Below are positions 10,290 to 53,805 of a stretch of 57,459 bases of DNA, one piece after another. Numbering within the stretch: the first letter of the stretch is position 1; each line of letters opens with the position of its first letter. The position numbers and the translations under genes are program-made. The notes under the pieces were generated by a model, which was not told where the DNA came from, searched no databases, and was given only the letters and a program-made list of their open reading frames with translations. Source of the stretch: an uncultured Planctomycetales bacterium (lineage in GTDB: Bacteria > Omnitrophota > Gorgyraeia > Zapsychrales > Fredricksoniimonadaceae); NCBI GenBank assembly GCA_964555945.1, contig CAZKUL010000001.1, positions 1 to 57,459 of the forward strand. The letters run 5' to 3'.

Positions 10290-10299
10290 ATGATTTATC

Positions 10300-11079: not shown

Positions 11080-11197
11080 TCGTATCGCCTGCATTGAGAG
11101 TTTCTTGACCATAAATACCCATCACAGACGCTAAAACAAGAACAAATATTGAAAATATAAAAATGATACCTGCTATAGATATGATTGCTAATTTCAT
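11072..11197 (-). CDS. 41-aa single-TM peptide (unannotated small ORF)
   Basis: AAAAGGAGACGAT-ATG Shine-Dalgarno. Product MKLAIISIAGIIFIFSIFVLVLASVMGIYGQETLNAGDTNE. Sits between two operon genes with its stop overlapping the SDR start. Confidence 0.45.
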   Translation of the reverse strand: MKLAIISIAGIIFIFSIFVLVLASVMGIYGQETLNAGDTNE

Positions 11198-11210
11198 ATC
11201 GTCTCCTTTT

Positions 11211-11963: not shown

Positions 11964-11976
11964 AGCAATCCCTTTC

Positions 11977-14149: not shown

Positions 14150-14219
14150 GAAAACAGTTTATCAAGAGGCCAAGCACTTCAGATAGATGAAAATCATGAT
14201 AAAGACAAAAATTAGGGAA

Positions 14220-14263
14220 GAAAATTGCAGATTCAAACAAAAACTATGCAAAATCTTGCAGGG
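14220..14263 (-). promoter_or_regulatory. triple-TGCA promoter/operator module, copy 2 (upstream of the T3PKS operon)
   Basis: Minus strand reads CCCTGCAAGATTTTGCATAG-N13-CTGCAATTTTC, with TGCA cores starting 10 and 21 bp apart. Lies 70 nt upstream of ATG 14149. Confidence 0.6.
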
Positions 14264-14303
14264 TGTAATTAAACCATATTTTTTCAGCTTATACGAAAGA
14301 AAA

Positions 14304-36373: not shown

Positions 36374-38446
36374 CTAAGAAGTGATGGCTATCGTATCAAT
36401 ACCTAAAACGGTTGTAGGGGATGAGTTCTTGTTGCGTCCAACAACCCTAATCAATATCACATTGTCCCCCTTCTCAAAAAAAACACCCTTAAATACAATC
36501 TTTTTGACAAAAATGCCACGGCTAAAAAGATCAATCGGGGCACTCGTAAGACTAACACTGTTGAACCAAATCTCAACTGCACCAGCCACTGAATCGGTTG
36601 TAACATTAAGGACCATATTCCCTTTAAGGGATTTGGGAAATCTGAGCCTGAAGGCAATACCCGCCCCCTGAAAATAAGGTTTAAACAGTACCTGGTCATC
36701 GTTTTCCCAAAATGGACCATAACGGGCCATATCTTGCTCCCAAAAGATCTCTCCTTGGTGAGAATCTACATTACCCAGCGTTAAGTTTATCAACGAAGGC
36801 TTATCGCTAGGAATAAGGTCTCCCTTTTTCCACAAGGTGTTGTCCTTAAGGTCTTTATCTTTAACTGTCAAAAGCTTATAGATCCAGTGTGCGTCATTAA
36901 GGTAGTATTTTTTAAAATGGTATTTTTGCTTGTCAGGAAGTTTTGATAGGAAATCAGTAAAGGGTTCTCCGGTGGAACATAAAAATAAATCCTTATTTTT
37001 TAGGTAAGCTTGTTCAATTGATTGCTCAAATGCTTTTCTATCAGCGCCCCAATTGGGCAACCCAAAGGAATTGACCAACATAACATTTATGTCTGGCCTT
37101 CGATGATAGGCTTCCTGGTAGTATGCCTTTAGCTGAAAATAAAAGCGCGAATCACTGTCCCAGTATTGGGCATTTGACGGGAGCTTTCGAAGGATCAAGT
37201 TACAAAACTCGGCGATGTCATGATAGTTTCGCTTATTTGGATTGGCTAAATATTCGTTAGACCGAAAACAATTATAGCTGTACGCGTTGTTATAGCGCAG
37301 GCACCAGAAACTATTGGGATCGTTCCCCCACCGGCTTATATGTGCATAAAAATAAACGGTCCATCCGAGACTCAGCGCCGCGGCAAGAGCCAAAAGCCAA
37401 CGTATAATTGCGGATCGAATAACAATAGGGTGGTGAATGGTCTTATAGACCACAAATGAGGCCCAGAAAGCCAGAATAATAAAGGTCGAAAGATATTGGG
37501 CAAAAAGGGCCCAGGTGTTAAGGCCTATCTCGAAGACAATGATAGGGATAAAAGTAAAAATTAGGCCTAGAGTGCTTTCCGTCCACCTCCAGGATCTCAC
37601 AAAATAAAATACTCCGATGGCAGCCGGAAACAAATAAGGGGAAGGGAATTGCATGAATACTAGAAATAAGTATTCCCTAAACCCGCTCCACAGTGATCGT
37701 TTAAAAAATAATGTCTTAAATTGGCCCCCCATGGCCCCAGACAGTGGTTGGACGATGCTATGATAGAAATTGACTTCATAAATGAAGGTCAGAAGCCATG
37801 GCGTAAAACCGATAAAGAAATAGAGGGCAGATTTCCCCAGGATACGCCAGGGATTGTCTTTGCGCCTTCCCATTCTCCATAACAGGGCCGCCAGAGATCC
37901 TATCAATAAACATCCAAGCAAAGCGTGTTGGAAGACACCCAAACCAGATAAGAAAAAAAGGGCATACAAATATTTGAGATCACCGGTACGTTGCAATCGC
38001 CCATATAAATAGATGGCCGTTGCCATAAAAACAGCGTTGACCGCGTATTCTGCCAGGACGGTACTATGCCACCACATGGAATGCGAAACCATCAGAAAAA
38101 GTGAACTAACAAGCGCTGTCAGCCAGCATCGATGAATGGCATACAGAGCGACATAAAATATACCGATGGCAAGCGCCCCTGCCAATACACAAGACAAATT
38201 CCCACGGTAGGCCTGATCCCCAAGGGGTAAATGCTCTATCAACCAGCCCCACAAGACCGTAATATTATGATTATTGACCCAGGTCGAAATTCCGAGATGT
38301 CCAATACGATGGATAAATAAAGCTGAGTCTCCCATCCCGATGGATGGCAGGCAGAAGTACCCATAAAATAGGAACGGAATAGGAAAGAATAAAAAAATAA
38401 ACAACTTCTGGGAAAGACGGGGAGGAATCATAGCGGTGAATACCAA
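36374..38446 (-). CDS. polytopic membrane protein, DUF2723-like GT-C fold plus C-terminal soluble domain
   Basis: 690 aa. N-terminal ..GMGDSALFIHRIGHLGIS...LGDQAYRGNLSCVL pattern, about 11 TMs, and a roughly 300-aa C-terminal periplasmic domain. Confidence 0.5.
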   Translation of the reverse strand: MVFTAMIPPRLSQKLFIFLFFPIPFLFYGYFCLPSIGMGDSALFIHRIGHLGISTWVNNHNITVLWGWLIEHLPLGDQAYRGNLSCVLAGALAIGIFYVALYAIHRCWLTALVSSLFLMVSHSMWWHSTVLAEYAVNAVFMATAIYLYGRLQRTGDLKYLYALFFLSGLGVFQHALLGCLLIGSLAALLWRMGRRKDNPWRILGKSALYFFIGFTPWLLTFIYEVNFYHSIVQPLSGAMGGQFKTLFFKRSLWSGFREYLFLVFMQFPSPYLFPAAIGVFYFVRSWRWTESTLGLIFTFIPIIVFEIGLNTWALFAQYLSTFIILAFWASFVVYKTIHHPIVIRSAIIRWLLALAAALSLGWTVYFYAHISRWGNDPNSFWCLRYNNAYSYNCFRSNEYLANPNKRNYHDIAEFCNLILRKLPSNAQYWDSDSRFYFQLKAYYQEAYHRRPDINVMLVNSFGLPNWGADRKAFEQSIEQAYLKNKDLFLCSTGEPFTDFLSKLPDKQKYHFKKYYLNDAHWIYKLLTVKDKDLKDNTLWKKGDLIPSDKPSLINLTLGNVDSHQGEIFWEQDMARYGPFWENDDQVLFKPYFQGAGIAFRLRFPKSLKGNMVLNVTTDSVAGAVEIWFNSVSLTSAPIDLFSRGIFVKKIVFKGVFFEKGDNVILIRVVGRNKNSSPTTVLGIDTIAITS

Positions 38447-38472: not shown

Positions 38473-39618
38473 TTAAAAGGCCGATAAGGTCCTTGCTAAA
38501 GTTCCTATGACGGCTTCCTGCTGAATGTCAGTCAAACCAACCCACAAGGGAAGGCGAATCAATCTCTCAGAAACAGAGTCGGTAATTGCAAGATCTCCAT
38601 TCGCTCGACCGTATCGTTGTCCTGCCGGCGAAGAATGCAGCGGCACATAATGAAACACGGCTCCAATATTATCACGTCTTAACTCCTCAAGGACCATTTG
38701 ACGGTCGATACCCTCCGCAAGCAAAATATAATACATATGGGCGTCATGTTGACATTCTTTGGGAACGATTGGACGCCGTAACATCCCGGCGCTTTCCAAG
38801 AAACCAAGTGAATCGTGATACCTTTGCCAAATACCCAAACGTATTTTAGTAATAGCCTCTGCTTCTTGCATCTGCGCCCATAAAAATGCAGCTATGATCT
38901 CACCCGGCAAATAGGATGAACCAATATCAATCCAGGAATATTTGTCAGTCTGACCCTCAAAGAACTGGCTTCGATTGGTCCCTTTTTCACGAATAATATC
39001 GGCACGGTCAGCAAAAATCGTGTCATTAACTAACAGCGCACCGCCTTCCCCTGCCATGATATTCTTAGTTTCATGAAACGAAAACGTACCTAGTTGTCCG
39101 ATGGACCCCAGAGGCCGACCCTTATAAAAAGACATAATTGCGTGTGCGGCATCTTCAATGACCAATAACTGATGCCGCTGTGCGACGCCCATCATGACAT
39201 CCATCTCGCAAGCGACGCCGGCATAATGAACCGGTACAATCGCTTTAGTACGTGGCGTGATGGCCTCTTCAATCAATCTTTCGTCCATATTCAGCGTGTC
39301 AGGACGGATGTCCACAAATACCGGAACAGCGCCGCGCAAGACAAAGGCATTGGCCGTAGAGACAAAGGTATAGGATGGCATGATAACTTCATCTCCCTGC
39401 TTGATGTCAGCAAGGATGGCTGCCATTTCCAAAGCTGCCGTACAAGAATGTGTCAGCAATGCTTTTCGCACGCCGATTTTATTTTCTAACCAGATTTGAC
39501 ATTTCTTAGTGAAGACGCCATTACCGGAGAGATGGCCATTGGCATGGGCTTGTGCTATACAATCAAGTTCGCGGCCGGTCATGTAGGGTTTATTAAAGAG
39601 TATCCATCCATCATCCAT
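38473..39618 (-). CDS. wecE: dTDP-4-amino-4,6-dideoxygalactose transaminase (DegT/WecE family)
   Basis: Collinear with E. coli WecE as I recall it: FNKPYMTGRELDCI, GNGVFTKKCQIWLE, EVIMPSYTFVSTANAFVLRGA, VPVHYAGVACEMD, FSFHETKN, IREKGTNRSQFF, VFHYVPLHSSPAG, SERLIRLPLW. Confidence 0.85.
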   Translation of the reverse strand: MDDGWILFNKPYMTGRELDCIAQAHANGHLSGNGVFTKKCQIWLENKIGVRKALLTHSCTAALEMAAILADIKQGDEVIMPSYTFVSTANAFVLRGAVPVFVDIRPDTLNMDERLIEEAITPRTKAIVPVHYAGVACEMDVMMGVAQRHQLLVIEDAAHAIMSFYKGRPLGSIGQLGTFSFHETKNIMAGEGGALLVNDTIFADRADIIREKGTNRSQFFEGQTDKYSWIDIGSSYLPGEIIAAFLWAQMQEAEAITKIRLGIWQRYHDSLGFLESAGMLRRPIVPKECQHDAHMYYILLAEGIDRQMVLEELRRDNIGAVFHYVPLHSSPAGQRYGRANGDLAITDSVSERLIRLPLWVGLTDIQQEAVIGTLARTLSAF

Positions 39619-40394
39619 TACATATTAGCCTTTTTAATAGCAATTGATTTATACGCAACCACAAATCTGGAGCCTCCGGCAGGCAATGAAACACCGCAAC
39701 GAATTAAAACCAATTCAACACGTAAAAACCATTCAAAAATTTTATTAAGTACAGGATTGATAGAAAGCTCAGCCTTTGCGTCAAATTTCAAGTCTTTCTT
39801 ATTGTTTTGCCATATTCTCGATAAGCACATGATAGGCAACAGCGTGCTGACAAAAGAAGTGCTCCGAATAATTTCGAAACCTGCCCTGCCAATCTTTTGA
39901 TGCAATTCCCTAGCGCTGTATCTTCTGACATGGCAAGCTGTTTCATCAACCTTACTAAAGAGCCAGGGATGCTGTGGAACGCTAAGAAACGCAATACCCC
40001 CGGGTCTAAGGGCCTTATACATTTGTTTCAACACTAGCTCATCCTCTTCAATATGCTCTAATACATCAAAAGCGCCAATAACATCCCAGTCAGATTCGTA
40101 AGGAATAGCGCGGGCATCCATTTGCACAAATTCGGCGTCCGGTACACGCACTCTAGCATAGACCAACCCTTCTTCAAAATACTCGACTCCCAAAAGCCTC
40201 AGACCGGAAAATTCCTTCGAGATACCTGCAAGAACAAACCCTGTTCCACATCCGATTTCTAGGTAAGATTTTAGTTTCGCCGCATACTTATGAAGCGCCC
40301 AAATAATAAGTTTATTCCTAACACGAAACCAAAAGTGGCCCGCCTCTAATTCAGCCAATTCTTTGAAATAATGGGCTTTGAATCCGCTATTCAT
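39618..40394 (-). CDS. class I SAM-dependent methyltransferase
   Basis: LEIGCGTGF motif I and a DVLEHI motif. Start set at MNSGFKAHYF, which overlaps the upstream stop as TAATG. Confidence 0.75.
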   Translation of the reverse strand: MNSGFKAHYFKELAELEAGHFWFRVRNKLIIWALHKYAAKLKSYLEIGCGTGFVLAGISKEFSGLRLLGVEYFEEGLVYARVRVPDAEFVQMDARAIPYESDWDVIGAFDVLEHIEEDELVLKQMYKALRPGGIAFLSVPQHPWLFSKVDETACHVRRYSARELHQKIGRAGFEIIRSTSFVSTLLPIMCLSRIWQNNKKDLKFDAKAELSINPVLNKIFEWFLRVELVLIRCGVSLPAGGSRFVVAYKSIAIKKANM

Positions 40395-41779
40395 TAACTG
40401 ATGTGACCGTATTTGTACATATCCTTCATCTCCACAGGTATTCCCCAATCATTGGCTCCAACATTGTCGTGGAGCCTGGAGAACTCATTTCTGTAGTGAC
40501 TTTCGACATCCTCCAGAAGCCTATTTTTAGATGGATTAAAGTCATGCTGGTATAGCGCATTAATGGTGTGCTTGACATACTTATCGATGGCTTCTTCTCT
40601 CGAATATAGCCGGGTAAGTTTACGTTCAGGACTATAAAGATTCATGTCAATGGTAGATGTTCCCGATATGACAAGGTCGCAGAGATATTCCGCTATCACA
40701 GGCGAACAGTGCAGACCATCCCTCTTGGTGCCCGTTGCCACAATAAGACCTTCGAGTGAAGTGGGACCAATGAGTGGAAGTGTATCTGAACTGGTAGGAC
40801 GCCAGCCCACATTCACTCTGAGGAGGTGACTTCTGTAATAGTCTGTGTTGATTTGTTCCATGACGCCTTTGAGCAGGCTGTACACAGAAGTTAGCCTAGG
40901 CGAATACTCCGGCACCGGGCTTATAAAATTACTTGCACCAATGACCACCTCCGTTTTAGTTTGGGGGGCTGAGTAAAGTCCACAGGACAGGCCTCGATTA
41001 GGCGTACGAATGCAGTTTTCGGTAGCGCTTTCTTCACACCCAATGACGATCGTGCAGCCGACGCCATAAAAAACCCTTTGAAAATTGCTTTCCATCCCAG
41101 AACGTTTGATCAGGTTAGTAAATTCGGCACCATTACACAAAAGGACCTTCTGAGATTCTATTTCCACTCCACTTTCAAGTTTGACTGATTTAACCCTTCC
41201 ATTTTCCGCATGAATGCGCTCACAGTGATCGTCCACCAATTCAACATTGGTACAATTTGACAGTATCTGCTCAAGAGCGTTAATCAGATGTATGGGATTG
41301 ACCCATCCCTCGTTCTTGATAAAAATAGCCTTAGACAAGCGCTTGGCAGCGCTGGGCTTATAATTCTTTATTTCACGGGCTTGGACCTCCCAATGGGGCT
41401 CTCCAAACTCGACCAATGCCTTTGCTATCGCGTCATAATTCCTGTCTTCAAGTTCGTCCGTAGCCGCATTTTTTATCAAAAAAGTCCCAAAACCATACTG
41501 GAGCGGTAATTTACTTTCCTGTTTTATTTTTTCAAGAAGTCCAGGCCAGAGACTGTTGGACTTTTTATTAAAAAGAAACCGTCCGTGTTCGATTTTATTC
41601 GAAAGGGTTCCTTCCTCAATCTCACAAAAAGAATTGAACATGGCCGCTGCCGCCAATGATGCACAGCCAATCCTGCTACGTTTTCCGATGAGTTTGATCT
41701 TTAAATCCGGGGCGCGTTCTGAAAGGACATAAGCCGTCATCATGCCTATGATGCCGTTTCCAATTATACAAATTGACAT
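40394..41779 (-). CDS. FAD-dependent oxidoreductase (DAO/glycine-oxidase-like)
   Basis: N-terminal ICIIGNGIIGMMTA dinucleotide fold. 461 aa. Confidence 0.7.
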   Translation of the reverse strand: MSICIIGNGIIGMMTAYVLSERAPDLKIKLIGKRSRIGCASLAAAAMFNSFCEIEEGTLSNKIEHGRFLFNKKSNSLWPGLLEKIKQESKLPLQYGFGTFLIKNAATDELEDRNYDAIAKALVEFGEPHWEVQAREIKNYKPSAAKRLSKAIFIKNEGWVNPIHLINALEQILSNCTNVELVDDHCERIHAENGRVKSVKLESGVEIESQKVLLCNGAEFTNLIKRSGMESNFQRVFYGVGCTIVIGCEESATENCIRTPNRGLSCGLYSAPQTKTEVVIGASNFISPVPEYSPRLTSVYSLLKGVMEQINTDYYRSHLLRVNVGWRPTSSDTLPLIGPTSLEGLIVATGTKRDGLHCSPVIAEYLCDLVISGTSTIDMNLYSPERKLTRLYSREEAIDKYVKHTINALYQHDFNPSKNRLLEDVESHYRNEFSRLHDNVGANDWGIPVEMKDMYKYGHIS

Positions 41780-41782
41780 GGT

Positions 41783-42547
41783 TTACCCTTTAATGAAGTA
41801 GCAGAGACCTGGGTATGTAGCACATCTATGGATTGTATGGGAGTATTTATTAATGATTTTCTCCGAATAGACGCTACCTTCCGCCGATATGCCTTTTCGG
41901 GTCAATTGCCAGAATGCCATCACGCCTGCGGGTATCGTGCGTTTGTATATGGCATCAAAAGCTTCGAGTGTTGGTTCATAAGAATTGACATCAAAGAAGG
42001 CCAGCGCCACAAATTCATTTCTTTGGTTATTAAAAAAATCAGGTATGGTTTTTCTGCAGTCACCAGAAATGACAGAATGTTTGCCGAAATTATGCCCCAT
42101 GGCATTATTTCTTTCATGGAGTTCCAACAGCTTACGTAAATACCTCGCGTAACTCTCTCCCACTTTATAAGTGCCATTACGATGAATTTTTGTCGGCTCA
42201 TCATTTTCTCCGAAACCCTTATACCCCGTGAAGGTATCAAAACAGACGATCCGGCGGTTTAAATGTAAGGGTTCGTAAATCGCTCTTAAATTCTCGCAAA
42301 GTACCGCGGTTTGTCCGCGCCACGTGCCTATATCCATGATGATGCCAGGCTTTTCTACAATGAGTTTGTATACATCTGCGATGGCCAAAAACCTGGCCAA
42401 CAGCGATCCCCGGACAAAGAGTCCAAGCGATCTTTCTCTTTCATCTGTTGTAGCAGAATATTCTATGAGCAATTTAAATAGGGCCTCCCTGGCACGAAGG
42501 CTTTCTTTCGAGGAATAAGTCATCGCTGCGGATTCGTGTTTAGTCAT
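41783..42547 (-). CDS. TylF/MycF-like sugar O-methyltransferase
   Basis: GIIMDIGTWRGQTAV ... IVCFDTFTGYKGF ... GDCRKTIP ... FFDVNSYEPT pattern, typical of the macrocin-O-methyltransferase family. Confidence 0.55.
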   Translation of the reverse strand: MTKHESAAMTYSSKESLRAREALFKLLIEYSATTDERERSLGLFVRGSLLARFLAIADVYKLIVEKPGIIMDIGTWRGQTAVLCENLRAIYEPLHLNRRIVCFDTFTGYKGFGENDEPTKIHRNGTYKVGESYARYLRKLLELHERNNAMGHNFGKHSVISGDCRKTIPDFFNNQRNEFVALAFFDVNSYEPTLEAFDAIYKRTIPAGVMAFWQLTRKGISAEGSVYSEKIINKYSHTIHRCATYPGLCYFIKG

Positions 42548-42655
42548 TTCTATATCCCATTAAAATTAATTTTATATAAACTTATTGAAGTCTCAGTTAA
42601 GTTTATCATTCCCACCGGTATTTTCAAATGTAATCGTAGATTGTTAAGAATTTCA

Positions 42656-43369
42656 TCAATGAACATACTTCATGAAACGGGGCGCAGATTTACCGCAGTT
42701 AAACAACAAATCAAGAATGGTAACGCCATGGATAAATTTACCCCAGAGTTGAGGATATTCAGGATAACTTGAGTAATCAAACCAAGTTAGCTTGATGCCT
42801 TTCTCCGTGAACGCATTCTCTTCAATATAATCCTTGGCTGCAGGACCTGAGAGGTATTCCCTGCCTCCTGCCTGAACACATAACTCGACCAAACGTTCCG
42901 TCTTACCTTCAAGAAGGACATATTCCCATGAATGGCGAATGACTGTCTTTATTCCCAAGTAATCACATGCCGCCCTGATTAACTTACGATTAAGCTCTGA
43001 AAGGTGGGTGTATTTCTCAGCAAGATACAAGGGCTCAAGCCATTGCGCAATTTCTTCAAAATGTGGCGCACGGCAATAGTTGTGCGTCAGCGTATTCCAG
43101 TGGATCTTGGCCCAGTCCGATCCCTCAATCATGGTATCCCGTATGGTCTGATGGTACTTTCCTTTTGCTTGCACTGGGACCGTCAGCCACTGTTCTCCTC
43201 GAGGGGTCTTGATTTTATTGCGGTTGCGCCAATCTCGCCTCGTATATTGCATGTCATCATAGAGGATAAACTCATCCACCGCGGCAATCACGTCGAAATA
43301 ACCTTTCCAGGGGATGTAATTCGATTGAAGGATGGCAACTTTCTTCATTCTTCTCATTGCCTCCATCAT
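42656..43369 (-). CDS. WbqC-family protein
   Basis: [54 protein letters not shown], a characteristic WbqC N-terminus. ATGA overlap with the upstream GT2 gene. Confidence 0.75.
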
Positions 43370-44307
43370 GTGACCTTGTTGATAATATATAATGGGCGTT
43401 TTTTACTTTCACTAAAGGTCTTGCCGAGATAAATGCCGATAATGCCAAGGAAAGCGATGATAATACCACCAATGAAATACATAGAAACGATTATACTGCT
43501 CCAACCCAAGACTGAAACTCCATATACCTTGGCTCTTATCAAAAAATACAAGCCCATACAGAAAGCAAAAGATGCCATGAGGAAACCGAATTGGATGGCA
43601 AACCGTAATGGTTTGTCAGAATAGGCGATTAAACCCTCAAAACCCAACTTTAAAAGCTTGGCCAGACTGTAGCTGGACTTGCCTTTGGGACGTTGCGCGT
43701 GTTCGATCTCTACGCTGGCGGTTGGAAAGCCCATCCAATGAAGTAATCCCCCGAAAACCCGCAAATGTTCACGCATAAGGCAAAAGTTAACTACCACCTT
43801 TCTCGATATAATGCACATGCTGCTGTTTCCGCCATCTTTGTCCATATCCGTCAAATAACTGAATAATCTGTAAAATAGGCGTGAGGCCACTCTTTTAAGA
43901 AATGGATGCCGCCGTTTGGAACATCTCGCTAATATCACGTCATAACCTTCCTGGGCTTTAGCATACAGGCGTGGGATTTCTTCGGGACGTTCTTGCAAAT
44001 CGCAATCCATCACCACGACCCAATCGCCATGGGAATGATCTAAACCTGCAGTAATGCCATAATGCTGGCCAAAGTTACGGCTGAACTGGATGCCATGGAC
44101 ACGCGAATCTTCACGGGCAAGCTTCTCAATAATTTTCCATGAGTTATCCCCGCCACAGTCTTCAACAAGAATTATTTCAAAATTAGATGAAATACTCTCC
44201 AGAGCGGCCATAAGGCGCTTATATAACTCATCAAGACACTCCTCCGCCCTATAAACCGGAATAACTACAGAAATATGGGGAGTTGAAGGTATTGGGCCAT
44301 CTGTCAT
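43366..44307 (-). CDS. GT2 polyprenyl-phosphate glycosyltransferase (ArnC/GtrB/DPM1-like)
   Basis: [35 protein letters not shown], and two C-terminal TM helices. Confidence 0.8.
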
Positions 44308-44352
44308 AGAGAGTACCTGTCTGGAGATTTATTTGAATATATCACAAAATTA

Positions 44353-46230
44353 TTATTTAACAACGCTCAAAGTTTTATTAATTGGATTATTCGAAATAAT
44401 GAGATAATTCTCATTGGCAGCATAATTCCGATAGTTTAGACTGTTGATTATATCCAAATATTCCAGGATTTCTACCCTGGGCACAACAATATAATAACCT
44501 TTCTTCAACTGATTATTCAAAAAATGAGCATAATCCTTCCAGAAAATCCAGCTGGCCATATAACAATGATAATCTTGAGGCAGGGAATATTTCCCAAAAT
44601 AGCAGAAAAAGAAATCCTTCTCGCTCAGGAAAATGACATTGGGACTGTTAAGGGACAGAGCTCTCAAAGTTGAAAAATCGAAAAACGCGACATTTGAACA
44701 CGGGGAGTAAAAAAAACGGTGGGCCTTGAAATTTGAAAACTGTGCGCTTAGTAAATAAACCGCTCGGCCGGCATATTGGAAACTGACCACAAGGACCACC
44801 ATAGACGCAGCCACAGGAACAACAAATCGGATAAATTTGGAATGAGAATACTTGAATTCAATAGAAAATAAGTCCAATAATAAAAAAAAAGCCACGAAGA
44901 ACCCTGCGGCGATATTGACAATGTTATTCTCATGGCTCCGGTAAAAAAAATAAGCCGAATTGCCAATGTCCAGCGCCAATATAAAAATTCCAGTTTCAAA
45001 ATATTGGGGAGACAGCAAAGGCCTGTTCTTCCATAACAATAAAAATATGGATGCAAATAAAATCGGCATGTACCAATAAAACGAGTGACGACTGATCGCT
45101 ATAAATCCATACCCAGCTTTTAGGAAAAGACTAGTTGGATTCACGGACGGCTGTAGAAAAAATTTATAAAGTAAAAACCCTGCAAATATATAAATAAAGT
45201 TCTTACGACATAGGGAAAAGAATTTAGAAAGAAGATCAACATATGAATTTTTTCTACTGGTTCCCTCAAGAATGATTAACATAAGTACGAGAAGAAAATA
45301 AGACATCGAGTAGATAAAGCCGAATGAATGGTGAAAAATAATAAGGAATCCGAGAGTAACACCAATGGTCCAATGATATATGGTTTTCCAATAGGCCAGT
45401 GCCAGCAACACAAGCCACCAGTCTAAACGCAAGGGCGTGACTTGATAGGCTTGATCCATCTGCCCTAAATTACCGTACATTTCAGTAATGACAATACTTA
45501 GAAGCAGATAGACTGCTAACTGTTTATTGTCAAAAAATTTTCTTGCAAATAAATAGCACCCAAAAAAAAGAGCGAAGAAAGATAGCCTTCCCAATAAAGG
45601 AATTGTGTCTAAGGGAAATATCCTCATCCATAACGCTGATATCATGGACATAAAATAATCATAAAGACAGAAGGACTTATTTAAAGGTATCCCTTGTAAA
45701 AACCTCCATGCAGGACTCAATATGAAGCTCCAATCGAGTTCATTGATGGGGGATGCCGTAACCAGGCATAGTTCTAGCAAAACTGCAAATATTAAAATTG
45801 GCAGCCAGGGTGCTTTATAATTGGTGGAAAGGAACATAGTAACCAAAAGCACTATGCTTACAAAAATAATCCCGGACAGTGACCTCGTTGGAAAAGCCAT
45901 AGGAAGATAAAATCCTACGCTTATAAATAAAACAGATGACATCCCCATAAAGAGAATTAAAAAAATGTTTCTTATGACTGTTTTTCTTAAATTCAAGAAA
46001 AAACCATGCAAAATCAAAGAAAGCACCGGGCTCAAAAACACAATTAAACACAGGACATATACCTGAATCCCGCTATGTTCATTGATCATCGCACGTTTCG
46101 GCGGAAAGTATTCATTGATCGGGTAAGGCTCACTTAATGACCAGATGACGGGAGAAAAATAATAAAATAGCCAATATAAACAAGAGGTCACGCTGCTTGC
46201 TATTAGAATAATGAGAGGAATAGAAGGCAT
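44353..46230 (-). CDS. large polytopic membrane protein, unknown (GT-C or polymerase-like)
   Basis: 625 aa with more than 12 predicted TM helices and no soluble catalytic motif that I recognise. Sits between the two ArnC-like GT2 genes. Confidence 0.55.
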   Translation of the reverse strand: MPSIPLIILIASSVTSCLYWLFYYFSPVIWSLSEPYPINEYFPPKRAMINEHSGIQVYVLCLIVFLSPVLSLILHGFFLNLRKTVIRNIFLILFMGMSSVLFISVGFYLPMAFPTRSLSGIIFVSIVLLVTMFLSTNYKAPWLPILIFAVLLELCLVTASPINELDWSFILSPAWRFLQGIPLNKSFCLYDYFMSMISALWMRIFPLDTIPLLGRLSFFALFFGCYLFARKFFDNKQLAVYLLLSIVITEMYGNLGQMDQAYQVTPLRLDWWLVLLALAYWKTIYHWTIGVTLGFLIIFHHSFGFIYSMSYFLLVLMLIILEGTSRKNSYVDLLSKFFSLCRKNFIYIFAGFLLYKFFLQPSVNPTSLFLKAGYGFIAISRHSFYWYMPILFASIFLLLWKNRPLLSPQYFETGIFILALDIGNSAYFFYRSHENNIVNIAAGFFVAFFLLLDLFSIEFKYSHSKFIRFVVPVAASMVVLVVSFQYAGRAVYLLSAQFSNFKAHRFFYSPCSNVAFFDFSTLRALSLNSPNVIFLSEKDFFFCYFGKYSLPQDYHCYMASWIFWKDYAHFLNNQLKKGYYIVVPRVEILEYLDIINSLNYRNYAANENYLIISNNPINKTLSVVK

Positions 46231-46242
46231 AAAATGAGGGTA

Positions 46243-47175
46243 CTAATCTTTATGGCGCACTATGCTTTTCACAATATATTTAGGGCGTGCTTTAACTTCT
46301 TCGAAAATTTTCCCTATATACTGCCCAAGTATGCTGATTCCTAACAGTTGGATAGCTCCCATAAAAAGGACCGCAATCAGGATAGTGCTATAGCCACGAG
46401 GCGTGGCGGGATCAATAAAACGCAAGATCAGTTGGGCGACAATGCCGAGCAATGCTACAAAAAAAATAGCCAGAGAGAACAATGTCATGATTTCCAAGGG
46501 AATGTATGAAAATGAAAAAATCCCTTTGGTCGCCCAATTAAAATTCCTAAAGAAATTATTTGTCGTTTGGCCAAACATCCTTTCCGGGCGGACATAAGAA
46601 ACACCTGTTTGTTTAAAGCCCGTCCAGGCACGTAAACCCCGCAGAAACCTGTCCCGCTCAGGAAATGCTTTCATGATCTCCACGACCCTCCTGTCCATCA
46701 AGGAGAAATCACCGGCATTTAAAGGGATTTTGATATAGGAAAGTTTATGAAAAATACGATAAAACAATTTATAGGCCATTTGCATGAGTAAGGGGGCTTC
46801 ACGCTTGGCCCTCACCCCGTAAACGACATCAAATCCCTCCATCCATTTCTTATAAAATTCCTCTATTATCTCCGGAGGGTCCTGGAGGTCGCCATCCAAT
46901 AGAACAACAGCATCTCCCGTGGCAATATCCATGCCGCTGGTGAAGGCCATTTGGGAAGAGAAATTGCGGGAATGGTTAACTGCAATGACATGGGGATCTT
47001 GACCCGCCAGCCCTTGCAAAATCATTTCCGTGTTATCAGGACTGCCATCATTGACAAAAATGATTTCATAATCGACACCGATCTTCAGAAACGTCTGAGT
47101 AAGCCTTTCGCGCATGTAGGGAATGGCCTGCTCATCCTTGTAACAGGCGATCACGGCAGAAATCTTTTTTGCCAT
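46243..47175 (-). CDS. GT2 polyprenyl-phosphate glycosyltransferase (ArnC/GtrB-like), second copy
   Basis: SAVIACYKDEQAI, FVNDGSPDNT, LLDGDLQDPPEII, and two C-terminal TM helices. Confidence 0.8.
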   Translation of the reverse strand: MAKKISAVIACYKDEQAIPYMRERLTQTFLKIGVDYEIIFVNDGSPDNTEMILQGLAGQDPHVIAVNHSRNFSSQMAFTSGMDIATGDAVVLLDGDLQDPPEIIEEFYKKWMEGFDVVYGVRAKREAPLLMQMAYKLFYRIFHKLSYIKIPLNAGDFSLMDRRVVEIMKAFPERDRFLRGLRAWTGFKQTGVSYVRPERMFGQTTNNFFRNFNWATKGIFSFSYIPLEIMTLFSLAIFFVALLGIVAQLILRFIDPATPRGYSTILIAVLFMGAIQLLGISILGQYIGKIFEEVKARPKYIVKSIVRHKD

Positions 47176-47184
47176 ATGTATCTC

Positions 47185-47688
47185 CTACTTTCTTAAATTC
47201 AAATAAAATGGGACGGGGCGGGAAAGCATTTCTTCTATCATTAACGGCAATTGCGCCACGTCATCAGGCCAGAAAGATTCAACCTTATTTAAAATCCTGA
47301 GTATGGCCCTGTCTTCCTCAGCCCAATGAGAGAAGCCATCATGGACGTAGTCCTTCCCGCGACCGGAAGCAACCAGCTTGACGGGGATCTGCTCATGGTT
47401 TATGTAATTGCGTAATGTTTCAAAAGGTCTGTACAGTAAAAATGGCGTAATGGAGTATACAATCGGGACCTTACCTTCAAGAGCCAATCCTACCGCCATA
47501 CCCATCATGGCCTGTTCTGAGGCCCCCACATTGATAAAACGCTTAGGGTAGTCATCACGGATCATGTCCCACATTTTATAACCCAGATCAGCAGTGAGGA
47601 CCCAAATGTCTTTATTGCGCGCCATATGCTGGTATAAAATATCCGCAAAACACCTGCGCATGCGAGGCGGTTGAGAAGCCTGATTCAT
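47185..47688 (-). CDS. transketolase-family protein, pyrimidine-binding (C-terminal-section) subunit, short form
   Basis: ..VLTADLGYKMWDMIRDDYPKRFINVGASEQAMMGMAVGLALEGKVPIVYSITPFLLYRPFE... At only 167 aa it lacks the usual C-terminal domain. ATGA overlap with the N-subunit gene. Confidence 0.7.
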   Translation of the reverse strand: MNQASQPPRMRRCFADILYQHMARNKDIWVLTADLGYKMWDMIRDDYPKRFINVGASEQAMMGMAVGLALEGKVPIVYSITPFLLYRPFETLRNYINHEQIPVKLVASGRGKDYVHDGFSHWAEEDRAILRILNKVESFWPDDVAQLPLMIEEMLSRPVPFYLNLRK

Positions 47689-48407
47689 TTTAATGCCTCC
47701 ATGGCCATCGTATAATCCTCTGCATTCATCACATAGTAATGGGCATCCAGGCCTTTAAGGAAAGGGAATTGTTCAACGTCTGTTCTGGCAAATAGGATAG
47801 ATTCCCCTCCTTCACCCTCCAAGAGCGCTTTATCCAGATCAGCTAATGAATGTCCGTCAATTTCAATGGCCCTCGCACCAAAACCCTCAAACTGCGCCTT
47901 TAGTCTTTGTGGCATAACCGGCATATAGGCGGCCCACCCATTAACATTAACAATCAGTTTAAGATTCCTGATTTTTTGTTCAACCAGAATCCGCAATGAT
48001 TCCCAAATGCTTCCCTCAGCGCATTCTCCATCTGAGATCATACAAAAGATATTCCGTTGCGGATCTGCCAGGGCCATCCCTAACGCAATAGGAAGACCTT
48101 GCCCAAGACTACCTGTCGAAACCCAAAGTCCTTTCTCAAGCGAACGATCGGGATGGATATGTAAGCCCTCCAAAGAAGCCAGGTCCAACAAGCCTTCTTG
48201 TTCGAGAACTACATATAAAGCCAGTCCTGCTTGCCCATTGGATAGAACAAATTTATCACCAGGGCCTTTGATTTGGTAAATGGCTATCATGACATCCAGA
48301 GCGCTAAGACAAGACCCTAAATGGGACAATTTCTCCCGGTAGGACACCTCCAGCAATCGGCGTCTTAATTGTTTCTGTATGGGGGAAAAGCCCTGTAAGT
48401 TAAACAT
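47685..48407 (-). CDS. transketolase N-terminal (ThDP-binding) subunit
   Basis: HLGSCLSALDVM, STGSLGQGLPIALGMA, and ISDGECAEGSIWES (GDG-type ThDP/Mg motif). Confidence 0.8.
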   Translation of the reverse strand: MFNLQGFSPIQKQLRRRLLEVSYREKLSHLGSCLSALDVMIAIYQIKGPGDKFVLSNGQAGLALYVVLEQEGLLDLASLEGLHIHPDRSLEKGLWVSTGSLGQGLPIALGMALADPQRNIFCMISDGECAEGSIWESLRILVEQKIRNLKLIVNVNGWAAYMPVMPQRLKAQFEGFGARAIEIDGHSLADLDKALLEGEGGESILFARTDVEQFPFLKGLDAHYYVMNAEDYTMAMEALK

Positions 48408-48433
48408 GATTCCATCCTAAGAGTCTGTGCGGC

Positions 48434-49318
48434 CTACTGCCTAACCGGCAATGCTTTGCTCTTTTCATTGGGTACACAAAAAATATTGGTCGTGATTTTT
48501 TGTTGATGATAGAGATCACTTTCCCTGACTTTATCAAGTATCATAAACATACCACTAGGATAATCGTAAGTAAAGAAACTATAGCTCAATTTCTTAAAAA
48601 AAGCTTCAATGGATTCCATTAATTTAGGGTTATATTCAATCATGATATGGGGCCGTTGACTCTCAATGGTTTTGCGCAGTCCCAGTATGACCTCAAAATC
48701 AAAGCCTTCCGAATCAATTTTGATAATATCAGGTTGTAAGCCTAGTTCATCCAAGGGGACAATATCAACACTGCACTCAAAAATCACGATGTTTTTATCA
48801 TGATCCGCAGGTAGATGCTGCTCCAGCATGGTCATATCGACATAATCTTTGATTAATGAGGCAGCTGTATAAATGGGGACTCCATTGTAGGTTGGCACAT
48901 AGAGTATCTTTTGGCATCTAGTACTTCCTGCTCCGATCATTTTAAAATCGAAACGTTTTAATTTCTTTTTTAATTTTCGTAAAGACCTCTCATGACAAAG
49001 ATTTGGTTCAATGGATAAAATGCTGTAATCGCTATGAATATGCCTGAATCCAATGGCCGAGATACCATCATTAGCCCCCACATCTAAAAAAAGACCATCA
49101 CCTTTATGGACCAGGTGGGCAAACCCAAAGTAACTTTTATCATGAGGCAACAGAAAAGGGAAATAGCGGAACATCTGGCGGCCGATAAACCCCGTATAGG
49201 GATTGTAACGCAAAAGCCTGGGGATGGCGATATTGATGCGCCAAAGGCGGATGATGAACTTACGCGCTTGGCGAAAGGTATCCTTAAACTTTCGTAATGG
49301 CATTACGATCAATCCCAT
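48434..49318 (-). CDS. FkbM-family methyltransferase
   Basis: FLDVGANDGISAIGF and IIKIDSEGFDFEVILG motifs. The exact start is uncertain because it overlaps the upstream gene. Confidence 0.7.
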   Translation of the reverse strand: MGLIVMPLRKFKDTFRQARKFIIRLWRINIAIPRLLRYNPYTGFIGRQMFRYFPFLLPHDKSYFGFAHLVHKGDGLFLDVGANDGISAIGFRHIHSDYSILSIEPNLCHERSLRKLKKKLKRFDFKMIGAGSTRCQKILYVPTYNGVPIYTAASLIKDYVDMTMLEQHLPADHDKNIVIFECSVDIVPLDELGLQPDIIKIDSEGFDFEVILGLRKTIESQRPHIMIEYNPKLMESIEAFFKKLSYSFFTYDYPSGMFMILDKVRESDLYHQQKITTNIFCVPNEKSKALPVRQ

Positions 49319-50228
49319 TCAGACTGGCTATGACGCCCATGTTCCCAAGACCTAACTCCAAAGGCAAATTGCCAATGGCTGACCTTTGCAGGAAATCTAA
49401 CAGTAGATTTTTAAAACTCAAAGGCAACGGTACTAATTGCAGCCAATATCTTAAGGGATACCGGTTCATCACATTAAATTCCTTTTGAATGGTATAGCCA
49501 TTGGATTCGAGCATTTTGACGATGGTCAGAGGATTGTAAAGAAAGGGGTGCTCAATATCGAGCATCGGACAAAGAGGCCCGAGGATCCTCGCGGGTAAGG
49601 ACTTAATATTATGCATTATTAAGAATAAACTCCCCTGAGGTTTTAAATATTCCCGGCAATCCTTTAAGAACTGCCTGGGGTCTGAGAGATGGTCAAACAT
49701 TTGAAACCCGCAAATCACATCAAAACAGGCTTTAGGATAGATGCCGCTGCCAAACATGCCATTATAAATCAAGCCTTTCATCTCTCCGGATTGCTCTATG
49801 GCCTCGCAACTTGGCTCTACCCCTTGCACCTGGCTGCAACCTTGCTTCAGCAAAACCTTTAAAAAAAAACCTGGACCGCAACCGATTTCCAACACCCTTC
49901 CCTGCTCATGGAAGGAAGAAAAATTTTTATGAAAATATTGCCCATAAGTCTCAGCCGCAGCCTGAGATAATTGGGGTTGATGGCCATGGCTTTTAGCGTA
50001 AAGGGCACTTAAAGCACTGGGGCTTAAAACAGGGTTAGCGCGCATCAATCCGCATTGATGGCAGAGGACCATCCGGTAATGCAAACGGTCCGGAAGACGA
50101 CGGGCGGAAAAAACTTCAGGGTTTAAATCCTCACAACGAAAGTTTGCGCCATATACCTCGCGATCATGGGCATCAGTCGGACAAATGGCGCATGTGGTCT
50201 TTATGAGTTCATCAGCGAAAGAATTCAT
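49284..50228 (-). CDS. class I SAM-dependent methyltransferase with N-terminal Cys4 zinc-ribbon-like segment
   Basis: CAICPTD...CHQCG, then LEIGCGPGFF. Start set at MNSFADE, an ATGA overlap with the epimerase stop. Confidence 0.7.
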   Translation of the reverse strand: MNSFADELIKTTCAICPTDAHDREVYGANFRCEDLNPEVFSARRLPDRLHYRMVLCHQCGLMRANPVLSPSALSALYAKSHGHQPQLSQAAAETYGQYFHKNFSSFHEQGRVLEIGCGPGFFLKVLLKQGCSQVQGVEPSCEAIEQSGEMKGLIYNGMFGSGIYPKACFDVICGFQMFDHLSDPRQFLKDCREYLKPQGSLFLIMHNIKSLPARILGPLCPMLDIEHPFLYNPLTIVKMLESNGYTIQKEFNVMNRYPLRYWLQLVPLPLSFKNLLLDFLQRSAIGNLPLELGLGNMGVIASLNGIDRNAITKV

Positions 50229-51157
50229 CTTTGATTTAACCACTCCATGGTCAACCTCAATCCTTCTTTCAGGGGCGTTGCCGCATGCCAGTTTAACAGT
50301 TCTTTGGCCTTGCGGACTTCACCCACCCAAATCGACGTATCCCAAATGCGGGCCTGCATCGCATTCCAATGGACATCAGCCTTAGAGCCTGTCAAAACCA
50401 AAATAACGGCCACAATCTCTTTTAAAGACACCTGCTGGCCTCTGCCTATGTTGATGATTTGATCGCCGCAAACTAAAAGACGCTCAACACTTAAATAAGC
50501 ATCCACCACATCCTCCACATAGATAAAGTCTCTCGCAGTTTCCGGGGACACCATTTCTAAGTCCTTCCCTTGTAAAGATCGACTAATAATGGTTGGCACC
50601 AAGCGGCTGGGTTCTTCATACGGACCATATACGGAAAACAGTCGAAAAGTCACAATGGGCTTCTTCTGGGACCTGGCAGTATATTGACTAAGCATCGTTT
50701 GGGCCGCCTTGGCCACCGCGTAATAACTGTTGGGTTCCAGGAGGTCATTTTCCTGCATTGGCTTTTGCTTAAAGCCATATTCAGAAGAGCTTCCGGTATT
50801 AACAAATAATTTATAAGGCACATGCTCTAAAGCGGCAAGAAGATTGAATGTCCCCAGGACATTGGTCATCAAAATACGTTTAGCATCATGCTGAATAGAA
50901 TAAGCCCCATGGGTGGCCAGATGATAGATAATACTTGGATTGATATGGCCCACCAGATGACGCACGAAAGATTCATCCGCTATGTCCCCGCGATGCAAAG
51001 TGAGCGAAGACAATAAGTCTTCAATACGCCAAAGGTCACCCTGGGGAGATACCAAGACGTGCACCTTAAACCCCATCTTAACCAAACGACGGGTCAACAT
51101 CGAGCCTACAAATCCAGCGGCTCCGGTGACTAAAAAACATTCTTTCTTCAAATCCAC
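50225..51157 (-). CDS. NAD-dependent nucleotide-sugar epimerase/dehydratase (extended SDR)
   Basis: VTGAAGFVGS cofactor motif, a GSSSEYG serine, and catalytic YAVAK. Confidence 0.85.
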   Translation of the reverse strand: MDLKKECFLVTGAAGFVGSMLTRRLVKMGFKVHVLVSPQGDLWRIEDLLSSLTLHRGDIADESFVRHLVGHINPSIIYHLATHGAYSIQHDAKRILMTNVLGTFNLLAALEHVPYKLFVNTGSSSEYGFKQKPMQENDLLEPNSYYAVAKAAQTMLSQYTARSQKKPIVTFRLFSVYGPYEEPSRLVPTIISRSLQGKDLEMVSPETARDFIYVEDVVDAYLSVERLLVCGDQIINIGRGQQVSLKEIVAVILVLTGSKADVHWNAMQARIWDTSIWVGEVRKAKELLNWHAATPLKEGLRLTMEWLNQR

Positions 51158-51314
51158 GGTTTTTTCTAGAGATTCATAGATATGATTGGGTTTTAGAAAA
51201 TTCTGTGTGATTATTTTACGGATTTAATTGTAGGTGACAATATTGTGACTAGCAAACAATTTCTATTTTTTAAGAGGAAATTAATCTAGTTGGCTGATAT
51301 TATAAAATTAGACT

Positions 51315-53403: not shown

Positions 53404-53805
53404 ATGATCCTTCAACGGACGTATATGCTTTATCTTCTAGCCGCTCTCCTTTTACTGAACATAACGAACTTTGATTATGTCCATAAGCGACGTTTAAATA
53501 AACTCAAATCGGAAAATTATTCTTTGGCGGGGAATAATGCCAACGTGGCCATCAATGTCTGGAATTACCGCAGACGCCTTGAACCTGGGAATATTACAGT
53601 TTTAAAATCCCTGGGTAAATATTATTTATTAGCGAGTGACAGCATTGATGCCAAGGAGACCCTTAATGGCCTTTTATGCATAGACCCTCCCCATGATAAA
53701 GACCGTCCTGAATTCTTAAGGGCCTACAGCTTGCTGGCAGGAAGTGATAAGATCCATTGTAAGGATAAAGTCATTTATGATCTGCTTTTCAAGTATTTTA
53801 TATAG
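53404..53805 (+). CDS. hypothetical membrane-anchored protein
   Basis: 133-aa ORF starting 5 nt after the YfhO-like gene, with one N-terminal TM and no recognisable motif. Confidence 0.4.
   Translation: MILQRTYMLYLLAALLLLNITNFDYVHKRRLNKLKSENYSLAGNNANVAINVWNYRRRLEPGNITVLKSLGKYYLLASDSIDAKETLNGLLCIDPPHDKDRPEFLRAYSLLAGSDKIHCKDKVIYDLLFKYFI

Follow-up and report, generated by a model that had tools for sequence, protein, structure and literature searches.

Genes for making and tailoring an amino sugar lie, in an uncultured Planctomycetales bacterium assigned by GTDB to the Omnitrophota, in one tight string with genes for a transketolase-like enzyme, and the question raised by this arrangement is whether all of them act on one and the same sugar. 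The string is found in positions 1 to 57,459 of contig CAZKUL010000001.1 (this whole stretch of 57,459 nucleotides is called the window below), which is contig 1 of a 2.88-Mb assembly, GCA_964555945.1, made of 281 contigs and 94% complete. An initial annotation, made from the sequence alone, had described at 38473-51157 a glycan cluster devoted to a heavily tailored 4-amino-6-deoxyhexose, delivered through polyprenyl-phosphate carriers and worked on by four methyltransferases, an oxidase and a C2-transfer enzyme. The coordinates hold, enclosing 13 open reading frames (ORFs), all on the minus strand, and searches of the ORFs with Pfam and NCBIfam profiles recovered all the families which had been named. 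The locus is real and uncharacterised; the reading that we favour, with moderate confidence, is that one operon has been formed from two lipid-carrier glycosylation cassettes, independent of each other and horizontally mobile, with a different sugar predicted for each.

The members of the two cassettes, here called A and B, are the following:

50225-51157, minus strand: cassette A gene 1, extended short-chain dehydrogenase/reductase (SDR) of the epimerase/dehydratase type, 310 aa; PF01370, 158 bits
49284-50243, minus strand: cassette A gene 2, class I S-adenosylmethionine (SAM) methyltransferase with an N-terminal Cys4 (Zn) ribbon, 319 aa; Methyltransf_23, 77.6 bits
48434-49318, minus strand: FkbM-family methyltransferase, apparently inserted in cassette A; TIGR01444, 60.5 bits, and a weak RfbT-like match
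47685-48407, minus strand: cassette A gene 3, thiamine diphosphate (ThDP)-binding PP-domain subunit of a predicted minimal split transketolase-like enzyme, 240 aa; Transketolase_N and DXP_synthase_N
47185-47688, minus strand: cassette A gene 4, Pyr-domain subunit of the same enzyme, 167 aa; Transket_pyr only, 70 bits; ATGA overlap with the N-subunit gene
46243-47175, minus strand: cassette A gene 5, GT2a, a family 2 glycosyltransferase (GT2) of the GtrB type, predicted to act on polyprenyl phosphate, 310 aa; matches to 5EKP and ArnC
44353-46230, minus strand: polytopic membrane protein, 625 aa, candidate periplasmic transferase of cassette A; about 9-11 hydrophobic segments; follows GT2a
43366-44307, minus strand: cassette B, GT2b, predicted polyprenyl-phosphate glycosyltransferase of the GtrB/ArnC type, 313 aa; matches to 5EKP and ArnC
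42656-43369, minus strand: cassette B, WbqC-family protein, probable start at 43348, 230 aa; PF08889, 286 bits (gathering threshold 21.3)
41783-42547, minus strand: cassette B, TylF-like (Methyltransf_24) methyltransferase, 254 aa; PF13578, 28.0 bits (cut-off 26.3)
40394-41779, minus strand: cassette B, DAO-family FAD oxidoreductase, ThiO-like, 461 aa; PF01266, 119 bits
39618-40394, minus strand: cassette B, class I SAM methyltransferase, 258 aa from the ATG at 40394; Methyltransf_23/11/25; TAATG overlaps at both ends
38473-39618, minus strand: cassette B, WecE-type dTDP-4-keto-6-deoxy-D-glucose 4-aminotransferase, 381 aa; TIGR02379, 610 bits (cut-off 434.85)

The gene list previously available was right in its families, but lacked the polytopic protein of 625 aa (44353-46230) encoded between GT2a and GT2b; likewise, the methyltransferase and WbqC frames, taken there as 39618-40448 and 42656-43369, belong to the families proposed, but most likely start at the ATG at 40394 and at 43348, respectively.

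The separation of the two gene sets emerges from their distribution in other genomes. For cassette A, an alignment of the transketolase N-subunit was searched against 185,579 species genomes, and the resulting loci were scanned by tblastn with all window proteins; here, as for cassette B, the counts refer to sampled collections and to tblastn thresholds of our own choice, and related loci are not phylogenetically independent. Of the 38 comparable loci (at least 45% identity, at least 4 kb of flank), 37 have the Pyr subunit next to the N-subunit, 33 have GT2a, 31 the SDR and 30 the Zn-ribbon methyltransferase, and 24 hold the complete five-gene cassette; a large membrane protein usually accompanies it. 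Tblastn found WbqC, the oxidase and the TylF-like methyltransferase in none of the 38 loci, nor was a close WecE found there, the only WecE-like matches being generic DegT proteins, 25-33% identical. GT2a is the most conserved gene of the cassette, mostly at 65-84% identity across phyla, while SDR and methyltransferase go down to 33-52%. In the closest relative, L032, a contig of ERR11523672, the SDR, the methyltransferase, both transketolase subunits, GT2a and the 625-aa protein follow each other in the same order, with identities of 61-84%.

Cassette A is carried by Omnitrophota, many Patescibacteria (Levy-, Davies-, Woese- and Amesbacteria, among others), Ratteibacteria, Elusimicrobia and uncultured Gamma- and Deltaproteobacteria, all of them metagenome-assembled genomes (MAGs) or single-amplified genomes. 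Of 401 genomes sampled from the phylum of the window, just 5 had the transketolase gene, which was not detected in any of the 15 sampled from the window's own family; several of its closest named relatives are Omnitrophota MAGs. In one of the Omnitrophota MAGs (L103, JAPLLY010000014, 7628-15031) the Pyr subunit and GT2a lie about 1.7 kb and 6.7 kb downstream of the N-subunit, which suggests insertions inside the cassette.

For cassette B, an alignment of the oxidase was searched against metagenome contigs, followed by tblastn, and nine comparable loci with at least 3 kb of flank were obtained. The TylF-like methyltransferase, a GtrB-type GT2, WbqC and WecE are present in all nine, and a similar class I methyltransferase in seven; transketolase and Zn-ribbon methyltransferase are found in none. 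In most related loci of sufficient length the TylF-like gene lies directly upstream of the oxidase, at 50-72% identity. The same set occurs in Halobacteriovorax sp. JY17, and in an ENA contig where a TMEM234-like small membrane protein is added. The initial claim that all tailoring genes serve one 4-amino-6-deoxyhexose is therefore not borne out, 0 of 38 A loci having WbqC, oxidase or a close WecE, and 0 of 9 B loci a transketolase.

Cassette B comes in variants. A sister variant, found in Pseudomonas koreensis, in a deltaproteobacterial MAG and in metagenome contigs, consists of a large membrane protein, WbqC, GT2, a methyltransferase, a hexapeptide acyltransferase, an EamA protein and WecE; here the methyltransferase-oxidase pair is replaced by the acyltransferase and the EamA flippase, and no SDR or transketolase like those of the window was found in these loci. 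WecE, WbqC and GT2 form the invariant trio, while the partners vary, being either the hexapeptide acyltransferase or the ThiO-like amine oxidase with the TylF-like methyltransferase. The WbqC of the window is 76-80% identical to its homologues in P. koreensis, the deltaproteobacterial MAG and the metagenome contigs, as against mostly 36-46%, and 48-61% in a few cases, for the WbqC of the oxidase loci, so that the cassette B of the window is a hybrid of the two variants; its WecE is 60-70% identical to the WecE of sister cassettes. Cassette shuffling is thus visible, a WbqC and a WecE of the Pseudomonas type being joined to a tailoring pair of the oxidase type.

One gene belongs to neither conserved set. 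The FkbM gene, which sits between those for the Zn-ribbon methyltransferase and the transketolase, is missing from L032, where methyltransferase and transketolase N-subunit abut, and from 80 of 80 related loci; its G+C content is 0.397, below the 0.44-0.46 of its neighbours. On these grounds it looks like a recent, local insertion into a conserved cassette. As the two cassettes recur separately and FkbM is a local insert, the combination of four methyltransferases, an oxidase and a C2-transfer enzyme on one sugar is best regarded as an artefact of juxtaposition.

Among the enzymes of cassette B, the aminotransferase had been proposed to be of the WecE type, and by sequence it is an orthologue-grade WecE: it scores 610 bits against TIGR02379 (cut-off 435 when rounded) and 605 against NF008687 (cut-off 375), and aligns with E. 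coli WecE (4PIW) at 479 bits over residues 6-376, its pyridoxal phosphate-lysine motif, SFHETKN at residue 180, coinciding with the same motif in 4PIW. The NCBIfam subfamily model of WecE takes in both galacto (Fuc4N) and gluco (Qui4N) products. The TylF-like methyltransferase stays below the gathering threshold of TylF itself (PF05711, 20.5 bits vs 23). Similarly, the oxidase fails the equivalog of ThiO glycine oxidase (TIGR02352, 130.8 bits vs 250.8), ThiO being its best-scoring model; it carries GNGIIG at residue 7 and a C-terminal extension of about 90 aa, and falls within a distinct family of proteins of about 461 aa, 48-69% identical among the matches listed.

In cassette A, the SDR has the motifs GAAGFVG at residue 12, SSSEYG at 123 and YAVAK at 146; it reaches no NCBIfam equivalog, its best PDB match is MoeE5, a UDP-GlcA 4-epimerase, at 119 bits, and its syntenic counterpart in L032 is 74% identical. 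The second enzyme is recognized by CAIC at residue 18 and CHQC at 61 (CxxC...CxxC), followed by EIGCGPG at 119, and matches generic methyltransferases only in PDB. In the PP subunit, a member of a large family of proteins of about 240 aa, the ThDP/metal motif is made up of SDGE at residue 125 and NVNGW at 154, and in the Pyr subunit SEQ at residue 57 holds the presumed cofactor-activating Glu. The two subunits bring together PP and Pyr domains, without the C-terminal TK domain, and score 119 (PP) and 61 bits (Pyr) against NF004559, for which the cut-off is 488; judged by its domains, this ThDP enzyme is not a canonical transketolase.

Both GT2s have the features of the GtrB/ArnC type, namely a DxD motif, a C-terminal pair of transmembrane (TM) segments and a full-length match to solved members. 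GT2a matches Synechocystis GtrB (5EKP) at 268 bits and ArnC at 145 bits, with DGD at residue 94; the corresponding figures for GT2b are 179 and 164 bits, with DCD at residue 101; two C-terminal TM segments are found in each. The delivery of the sugars in the manner of Arn and Gtr systems, as the initial annotation had put forward, is supported by context: both synthases are full-length GtrB/ArnC matches, sugar precursor genes are available in trans, and large polytopic proteins are enriched beside the cassettes. If large polytopic ORFs are defined by at least 400 aa and at least 7 hydrophobic segments, 30 of 32 cassette A loci have at least one within 6 kb (mean 1.75 per locus), vs 45% of random windows of this genome (mean 0.69).

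The candidate transferase of cassette A, the 625-aa protein, has homologues beside cassette A in L032 (61% identical and syntenic) and in L060, L062, L065 and L068 (32-39%); no match to it was found in Pfam, NCBIfam or PDB sequences, and a five-sequence profile searched against PDB and Pfam was also empty. The candidate for cassette B is encoded by a 14th gene, which starts 26 bp after WecE, in the same string but outside the coordinates of the 13-gene cluster:

36374-38446, minus strand: putative GT-C-type membrane protein (TMEM260/PMT_2-like), 690 aa, candidate periplasmic transferase of cassette B; PF11028, 29.7 bits (cut-off 24.2)

It matches the TMEM260 structure 9RQL over residues 28-218 (E 7e-4). 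This gene is not kept beside other B cassettes, where the polytopic proteins belong to mutually unrelated families, which recalls the Gtr pattern of a conserved GtrB and a variable GtrC, and likewise the strongly variable WxcO of Xanthomonas wxc region 3 (PMC13133917).

As for the sugar supply, the search for rmlA and rmlB in the rest of the genome, which had been suggested, found both of them together on contig C27 (429 and 437 bits), so that dTDP-4-keto-6-deoxyglucose would be available in trans; in one related locus, L030, the cassette is itself flanked by rml genes. The region C27:4591-23713 contains, besides rmlA and rmlB, seven further SDR-type matches, and C27 probably represents a large polysaccharide locus; a second rmlA-like frame on it, at 12542-13276, has an in-frame TGA. 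The window contig contains no Wzx-family gene, as had been reported, while Wzx-type genes are found on C2 and C22. Potential flippase genes are located on other contigs as well. Three genes of the GtrA family lie on C155, C118 and C2. In sister B cassettes the small membrane proteins are ArnE/F-like EamA or TMEM234-like ones; the only EamA-like match to them in this genome, at C10:20367-20943, is weak (31% identity, E 2e-7) and may correspond to two tandem ArnE/F-like genes, a candidate flippase in trans.

The 14 genes are probably transcribed together. Co-transcription was judged from gene spacing alone: the junctions within the 13-ORF string range from a 35-nt overlap to a 108-bp gap, with several ATGA or TAATG overlaps, and a single longer gap is found upstream of the string:

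51158-51314, no strand assigned: divergent intergenic region, probable promoter of the 14-gene minus-strand string; the sole gap above 108 bp

It contains a TTGTCA-16-TAAAAT match on the minus strand, at 51240-51213, promoter-like sites occurring overall at background frequency across the region. A scan for promoters and terminators gave 55 and 24 sites, vs 48.7 and 19.4 in shuffled sequences, again a background figure, and showed no operon boundary inside the string; both cassettes thus seem packed into one probable transcription unit. A genomic island was considered and rejected: the G+C content of the 38-51 kb block, 0.42-0.44, is close to the genome value of 0.45, and there is thus no compositional island signal.

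The following scheme may be proposed for the two cassettes. In cassette B, WecE would turn dTDP-4-keto-6-deoxy-D-glucose, made by RmlA/RmlB in trans, into a dTDP-4-amino-4,6-dideoxyhexose, to be tailored, most likely at or on the 4-amino group, by WbqC, the TylF-like methyltransferase, the ThiO-like FAD oxidase and the class I methyltransferase; GT2b would then put the product on polyprenyl phosphate. In cassette A, the SDR would yield a keto-sugar, to which the minimal two-domain transketolase-like ThDP enzyme may add a two-carbon unit. The branching of a keto-sugar by an oxidoreductase and a split transketolase has been proposed for miharamycin and amipurimycin (PMC12247030). The Zn-ribbon enzyme, and here possibly also the inserted FkbM enzyme, would methylate this second sugar, and GT2a would load it on polyprenyl phosphate. 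Once flipped by a flippase encoded elsewhere, the lipid-linked sugars would be moved to a surface glycan or protein by polytopic transferases, the candidates being, for A, the 625-aa protein and, for B, the TMEM260-like protein. Of this scheme the gene families, the division into two cassettes and the presence of rmlAB are shown; in the chemistry the WecE step alone is secure, delivery on lipid carriers, the assignment of a transferase to each cassette and the later sugar steps being inferred.

Several observations weigh against this two-cassette reading. In L032, too, cassette A adjoins a WbqC cassette: at 7779-14298 of that contig, a B12-binding radical SAM gene and then WbqC and its partners come after cassette A. 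Together with the probable single transcription unit, this adjacency makes a functional coupling possible, for instance the attachment of both sugars to the same glycan. No enzyme other than WecE reaches an equivalog threshold. The 625-aa protein lacks similarity to any GT-C family or solved structure, so that genomic context is what suggests its transferase role, and no flippase gene, of either the GtrA or the EamA type, was found in the window. Finally, GT2a is close to the glucose-transferring GtrB and may for this reason load an ordinary hexose, SDR, transketolase and methyltransferase acting elsewhere.

The WbqC cassette in L032 is a third variant, its tailoring set being different from those described above: it comprises a GT2, an acyl-carrier protein, a ketoreductase, a hexapeptide transferase and an FkbH-like loader, which suggests N-acylation of the hydroxyacyl type.

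The alternative that best survives develops the last of the points raised against the two cassettes: GT2a would first make an ordinary polyprenyl-phosphate hexose, e.g. undecaprenyl-phosphate (Und-P)-glucose, and SDR, ThDP enzyme and methyltransferase would remodel the lipid-linked sugar, as DprE1/DprE2 do with decaprenyl-phospho-ribose, or make a non-sugar substituent. The higher score of GT2a with glucose-specific GtrB than with ArnC (268 vs 145 bits) is in its favour, and a common, invariant donor would fit the conservation of GT2a, mostly 65-84%, next to an SDR and a methyltransferase falling to 33-52%. Nevertheless, we consider it unlikely: no membrane segments are predicted in the SDR, the methyltransferase or either transketolase subunit, nucleotide sugars are the usual substrates of extended SDRs, and no precedent was met in the literature searched.

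Still less probable is the pathway originally envisaged, in which 13 genes produce a single methylated, oxidised, C2-branched 4-amino-6-deoxyhexose, the two GT2s loading this sugar or two of its intermediates. The tight, co-directional gene string and the adjacency seen in L032 would be naturally accounted for, and a ThDP-dependent branching enzyme could in principle use the 4-keto substrate of WecE as its acceptor too; yet C-4 amination and branching at the C-4 ketone would compete for one carbon, WbqC, oxidase or a close WecE occur in 0 of 38 comparable A loci and transketolase or Zn-ribbon methyltransferase in 0 of 9 comparable oxidase loci, and a separate GtrB-type GT2 and a separate membrane protein next to it go with each cassette.

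That the cassettes supply a classical Leloir pathway in the cytoplasm, for an O-antigen- or capsule-like polymer encoded elsewhere in the genome, GT2s and membrane proteins being unrelated, adjacent glycan-modification genes, is very improbable. In its favour, many SDR genes occur in large polysaccharide loci of this genome, rmlAB lies on C27, C2 and C22 carry Wzx-type genes, and in E. coli the WecE product is used by a Leloir transferase for enterobacterial common antigen (ECA); but a GtrB-type GT2 is integral to both cassettes and highly conserved across phyla (33 of 38 and 9 of 9 loci), and family scans of the operon showed no polymer-building Leloir GT4/GT2 genes, Wzx or Wzy, the last of which was not searched for specifically.

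Within the two-cassette reading, the WbqC of cassette B belongs to a family widespread in O-antigen-type clusters, the function of which has long been missing. PF08889 has no assigned function and no solved structure; searched with the WbqC sequence, Pfam showed PF08889 as the sole match, even at E up to 10, and NCBIfam and PDB sequences showed none; no function for WbqC, or for either cassette, was found in the literature searched. An AlphaFold2 model, built from an alignment to which 15 diverse homologues had been added, has a mean predicted local distance difference test score (pLDDT) of 93.6 and a predicted TM-score (pTM) of 0.91. A first model, based only on homologues 72-80% identical, had a pLDDT of 66.7 and gave just noise in Foldseek, and was discarded. 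The fold search of the final model against PDB returned no match at E<=0.001; the top matches, all weak (E 0.06-0.09, probability 0.82), are a universal-stress protein and the cytidylyltransferase domain of Fom1, a weak hint of a HUP-like nucleotide-binding core in the modelled structure. A viral structure library contained four unnamed proteins of about 240 aa having the full WbqC fold (TM-score 0.69-0.81, E 4e-16 to 7e-7), and one further, partial match; the four full-length proteins indicate that WbqC-family genes are carried by viruses.

The wbq gene names are those of E. coli O121, in the O-antigen of which N-acetylglycine is attached to a 4-amino-4,6-dideoxyhexose. This N-acetylglycine is amide-linked (PMC7685785), and wbqC would itself be located in the O121 cluster, judging from the wbq naming and from the Pfam description quoted in PMC5532660. 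By blastn, no complete E. coli genome showed a match to the window's WbqC gene, and the link between WbqC and O121 stays therefore a presumptive one. In Streptomyces, operons have been described in which a WbqC gene is accompanied by a ProRS paralogue, a dedicated tRNA, an LmbE-type gene and MurG (PMC10404621). The O121 N-acetylglycine, these ProRS/tRNA operons and the weak fold matches to the HUP class, taken together, suggest by analogy that WbqC may put an amino-acid-type acyl group on the 4-amine, and that its partners may acetylate, oxidise or methylate that group. A role of WbqC as an ArnD-like deacylase was discarded, WbqC being equally conserved in the oxidase variant, which is without a recognisable acyltransferase of the hexapeptide or GNAT type.

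The two-cassette reading can be carried further, into a proposal that we hold to be possible but rather unlikely as a whole. WbqC would be a new nucleotide-dependent enzyme, with a HUP-like core and without a solved relative, adding to the 4-amine an acyl group of the amino-acid type, e.g. glycyl as in E. coli O121, to be converted by oxidase and TylF-like methyltransferase or, in the Pseudomonas-type variant, acetylated by the hexapeptide transferase; at the same time, the minimal transketolase of cassette A would build a C-branched or chain-extended methylated sugar on polyprenyl phosphate, a decoration common to Omnitrophota and many Patescibacteria. Both sugar types would be undescribed for the lipid-carrier route.

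Comparison with known systems places the two cassettes near, but outside, the best characterized ones. With Arn, which adds L-Ara4N to lipid A, they share a DegT-family 4-aminotransferase and, by prediction, a GtrB/ArnC-type GT2 loading an amino sugar on undecaprenyl phosphate and a periplasmic polytopic transferase, as well as, in sister B cassettes, small EamA-type membrane proteins like ArnE/F. In contrast, the aminotransferase of the window is of the WecE type (220 bits with the ArnB model, cut-off 631), and the operon has no homologues of ArnA, ArnD or ArnT and no EamA, featuring instead WbqC, the FAD oxidase and methyltransferases. Gtr and related three-component systems, such as the GT136 pentofuranose systems of Citrobacter youngae (PMC11127046), pair one conserved synthase of polyprenyl-phosphate sugars with polytopic transferases that vary greatly, a pattern also seen beside both cassettes; Gtr, however, loads plain glucose and has no sugar-tailoring genes, whereas each GT2 of the window has a dedicated sugar-synthesis set. 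The three-component arrangement, with a flippase encoded together with synthase and GT-C, is absent from the window, where the scheme may operate in trans. Going by its genes, the system would operate in the manner of Arn, Gtr and the three-component systems, without belonging to Arn itself.

Some resemblance is also found to systems making amino sugars by other routes. ECA synthesis (RmlA, RmlB, WecE, WecD) has in common with the window the orthologue-grade WecE, with its 479 bits to 4PIW; dTDP-Fuc4NAc is there used by a cytoplasmic Leloir transferase, and neither WbqC nor a GtrB-type GT2 is present. The E. coli O121 cluster, from which WbqC presumably has its name, would link WbqC-type clusters with N-acylated 4-amino sugars. 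The terminal sugar of the lipooligosaccharide LOS-IV of Mycobacterium marinum is an N-acylated 4-amino-4,6-dideoxyhexose. Its capping involves wecE, mmar_2318, mmar_2319, mmar_2323 and losA, mutants accumulating LOS-III; addition of the terminal sugar depends on wecE and on every one of the adjacent transmembrane proteins, which are of unknown family (PMC4703794), the context being, differently from here, that of an actinobacterial glycolipid. Region 3 of the wxc cluster of Xanthomonas campestris (wxcK-L-M-N-O), a genetically studied case concerned with a FucNAc side branch and described as 'modification and transport', includes WxcO, which varies between strains down to 26% identity (PMC13133917). 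Compared by description only, it resembles the window in having a local aminotransferase and in adding a dTDP-amino-6-deoxyhexose as an O-antigen side branch, and differs in making a 3-amino sugar and in lacking WbqC, oxidase and transketolase module. For cassette A, the nearest parallels are the miharamycin and amipurimycin split transketolases and the YerE-type ThDP branching enzymes of O-antigen sugars (PMC12247030), where the ketone formed by an oxidoreductase receives a short carbon unit from a ThDP enzyme; in miharamycin and amipurimycin the transketolase-like enzyme is also split over two genes. The enzyme predicted in the window is made of PP and Pyr domains without the C-terminal domain, and is tied to a lipid-carrier GT2 rather than to a natural-product pathway.

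What is new in this window is the presence of both cassettes in one operon, the hybrid nature of cassette B, the counted evidence of independence and a confident WbqC model without a significant PDB neighbour. One over-interpreted, super-tailored sugar gives way to two testable units, and the single-sugar interpretation should be dropped. Both cassettes would extend the Arn/Gtr scheme of synthase, flippase and GT-C to new donors. Cassette A, as a five-gene unit of Omnitrophota, many bacteria of the candidate phyla radiation and others, leads one to expect an undescribed surface sugar, perhaps C-branched, in organisms with hardly studied envelopes, while the occurrence of cassette B in the cultivable P. 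koreensis and related strains, and in Halobacteriovorax sp. JY17, opens a route to the function of the WbqC family.

Other membrane proteins are encoded around the string. A neighbouring protein is YfhO-like, with 26.1 bits, below the cut-off of 28.5; its gene is directly followed by an ORF of 133 aa, at 53404-53805, for which no family match was obtained at any threshold tried. Three paralogous polytopic proteins with C-terminal TPR domains are found at 34589-36322, 53824-55614 and 55601-57442. Their membrane domains correspond to no Pfam or PDB family, a profile matching TPR proteins only; the last two are in tandem, with a 14-nt overlap, and match each other at 101 bits.

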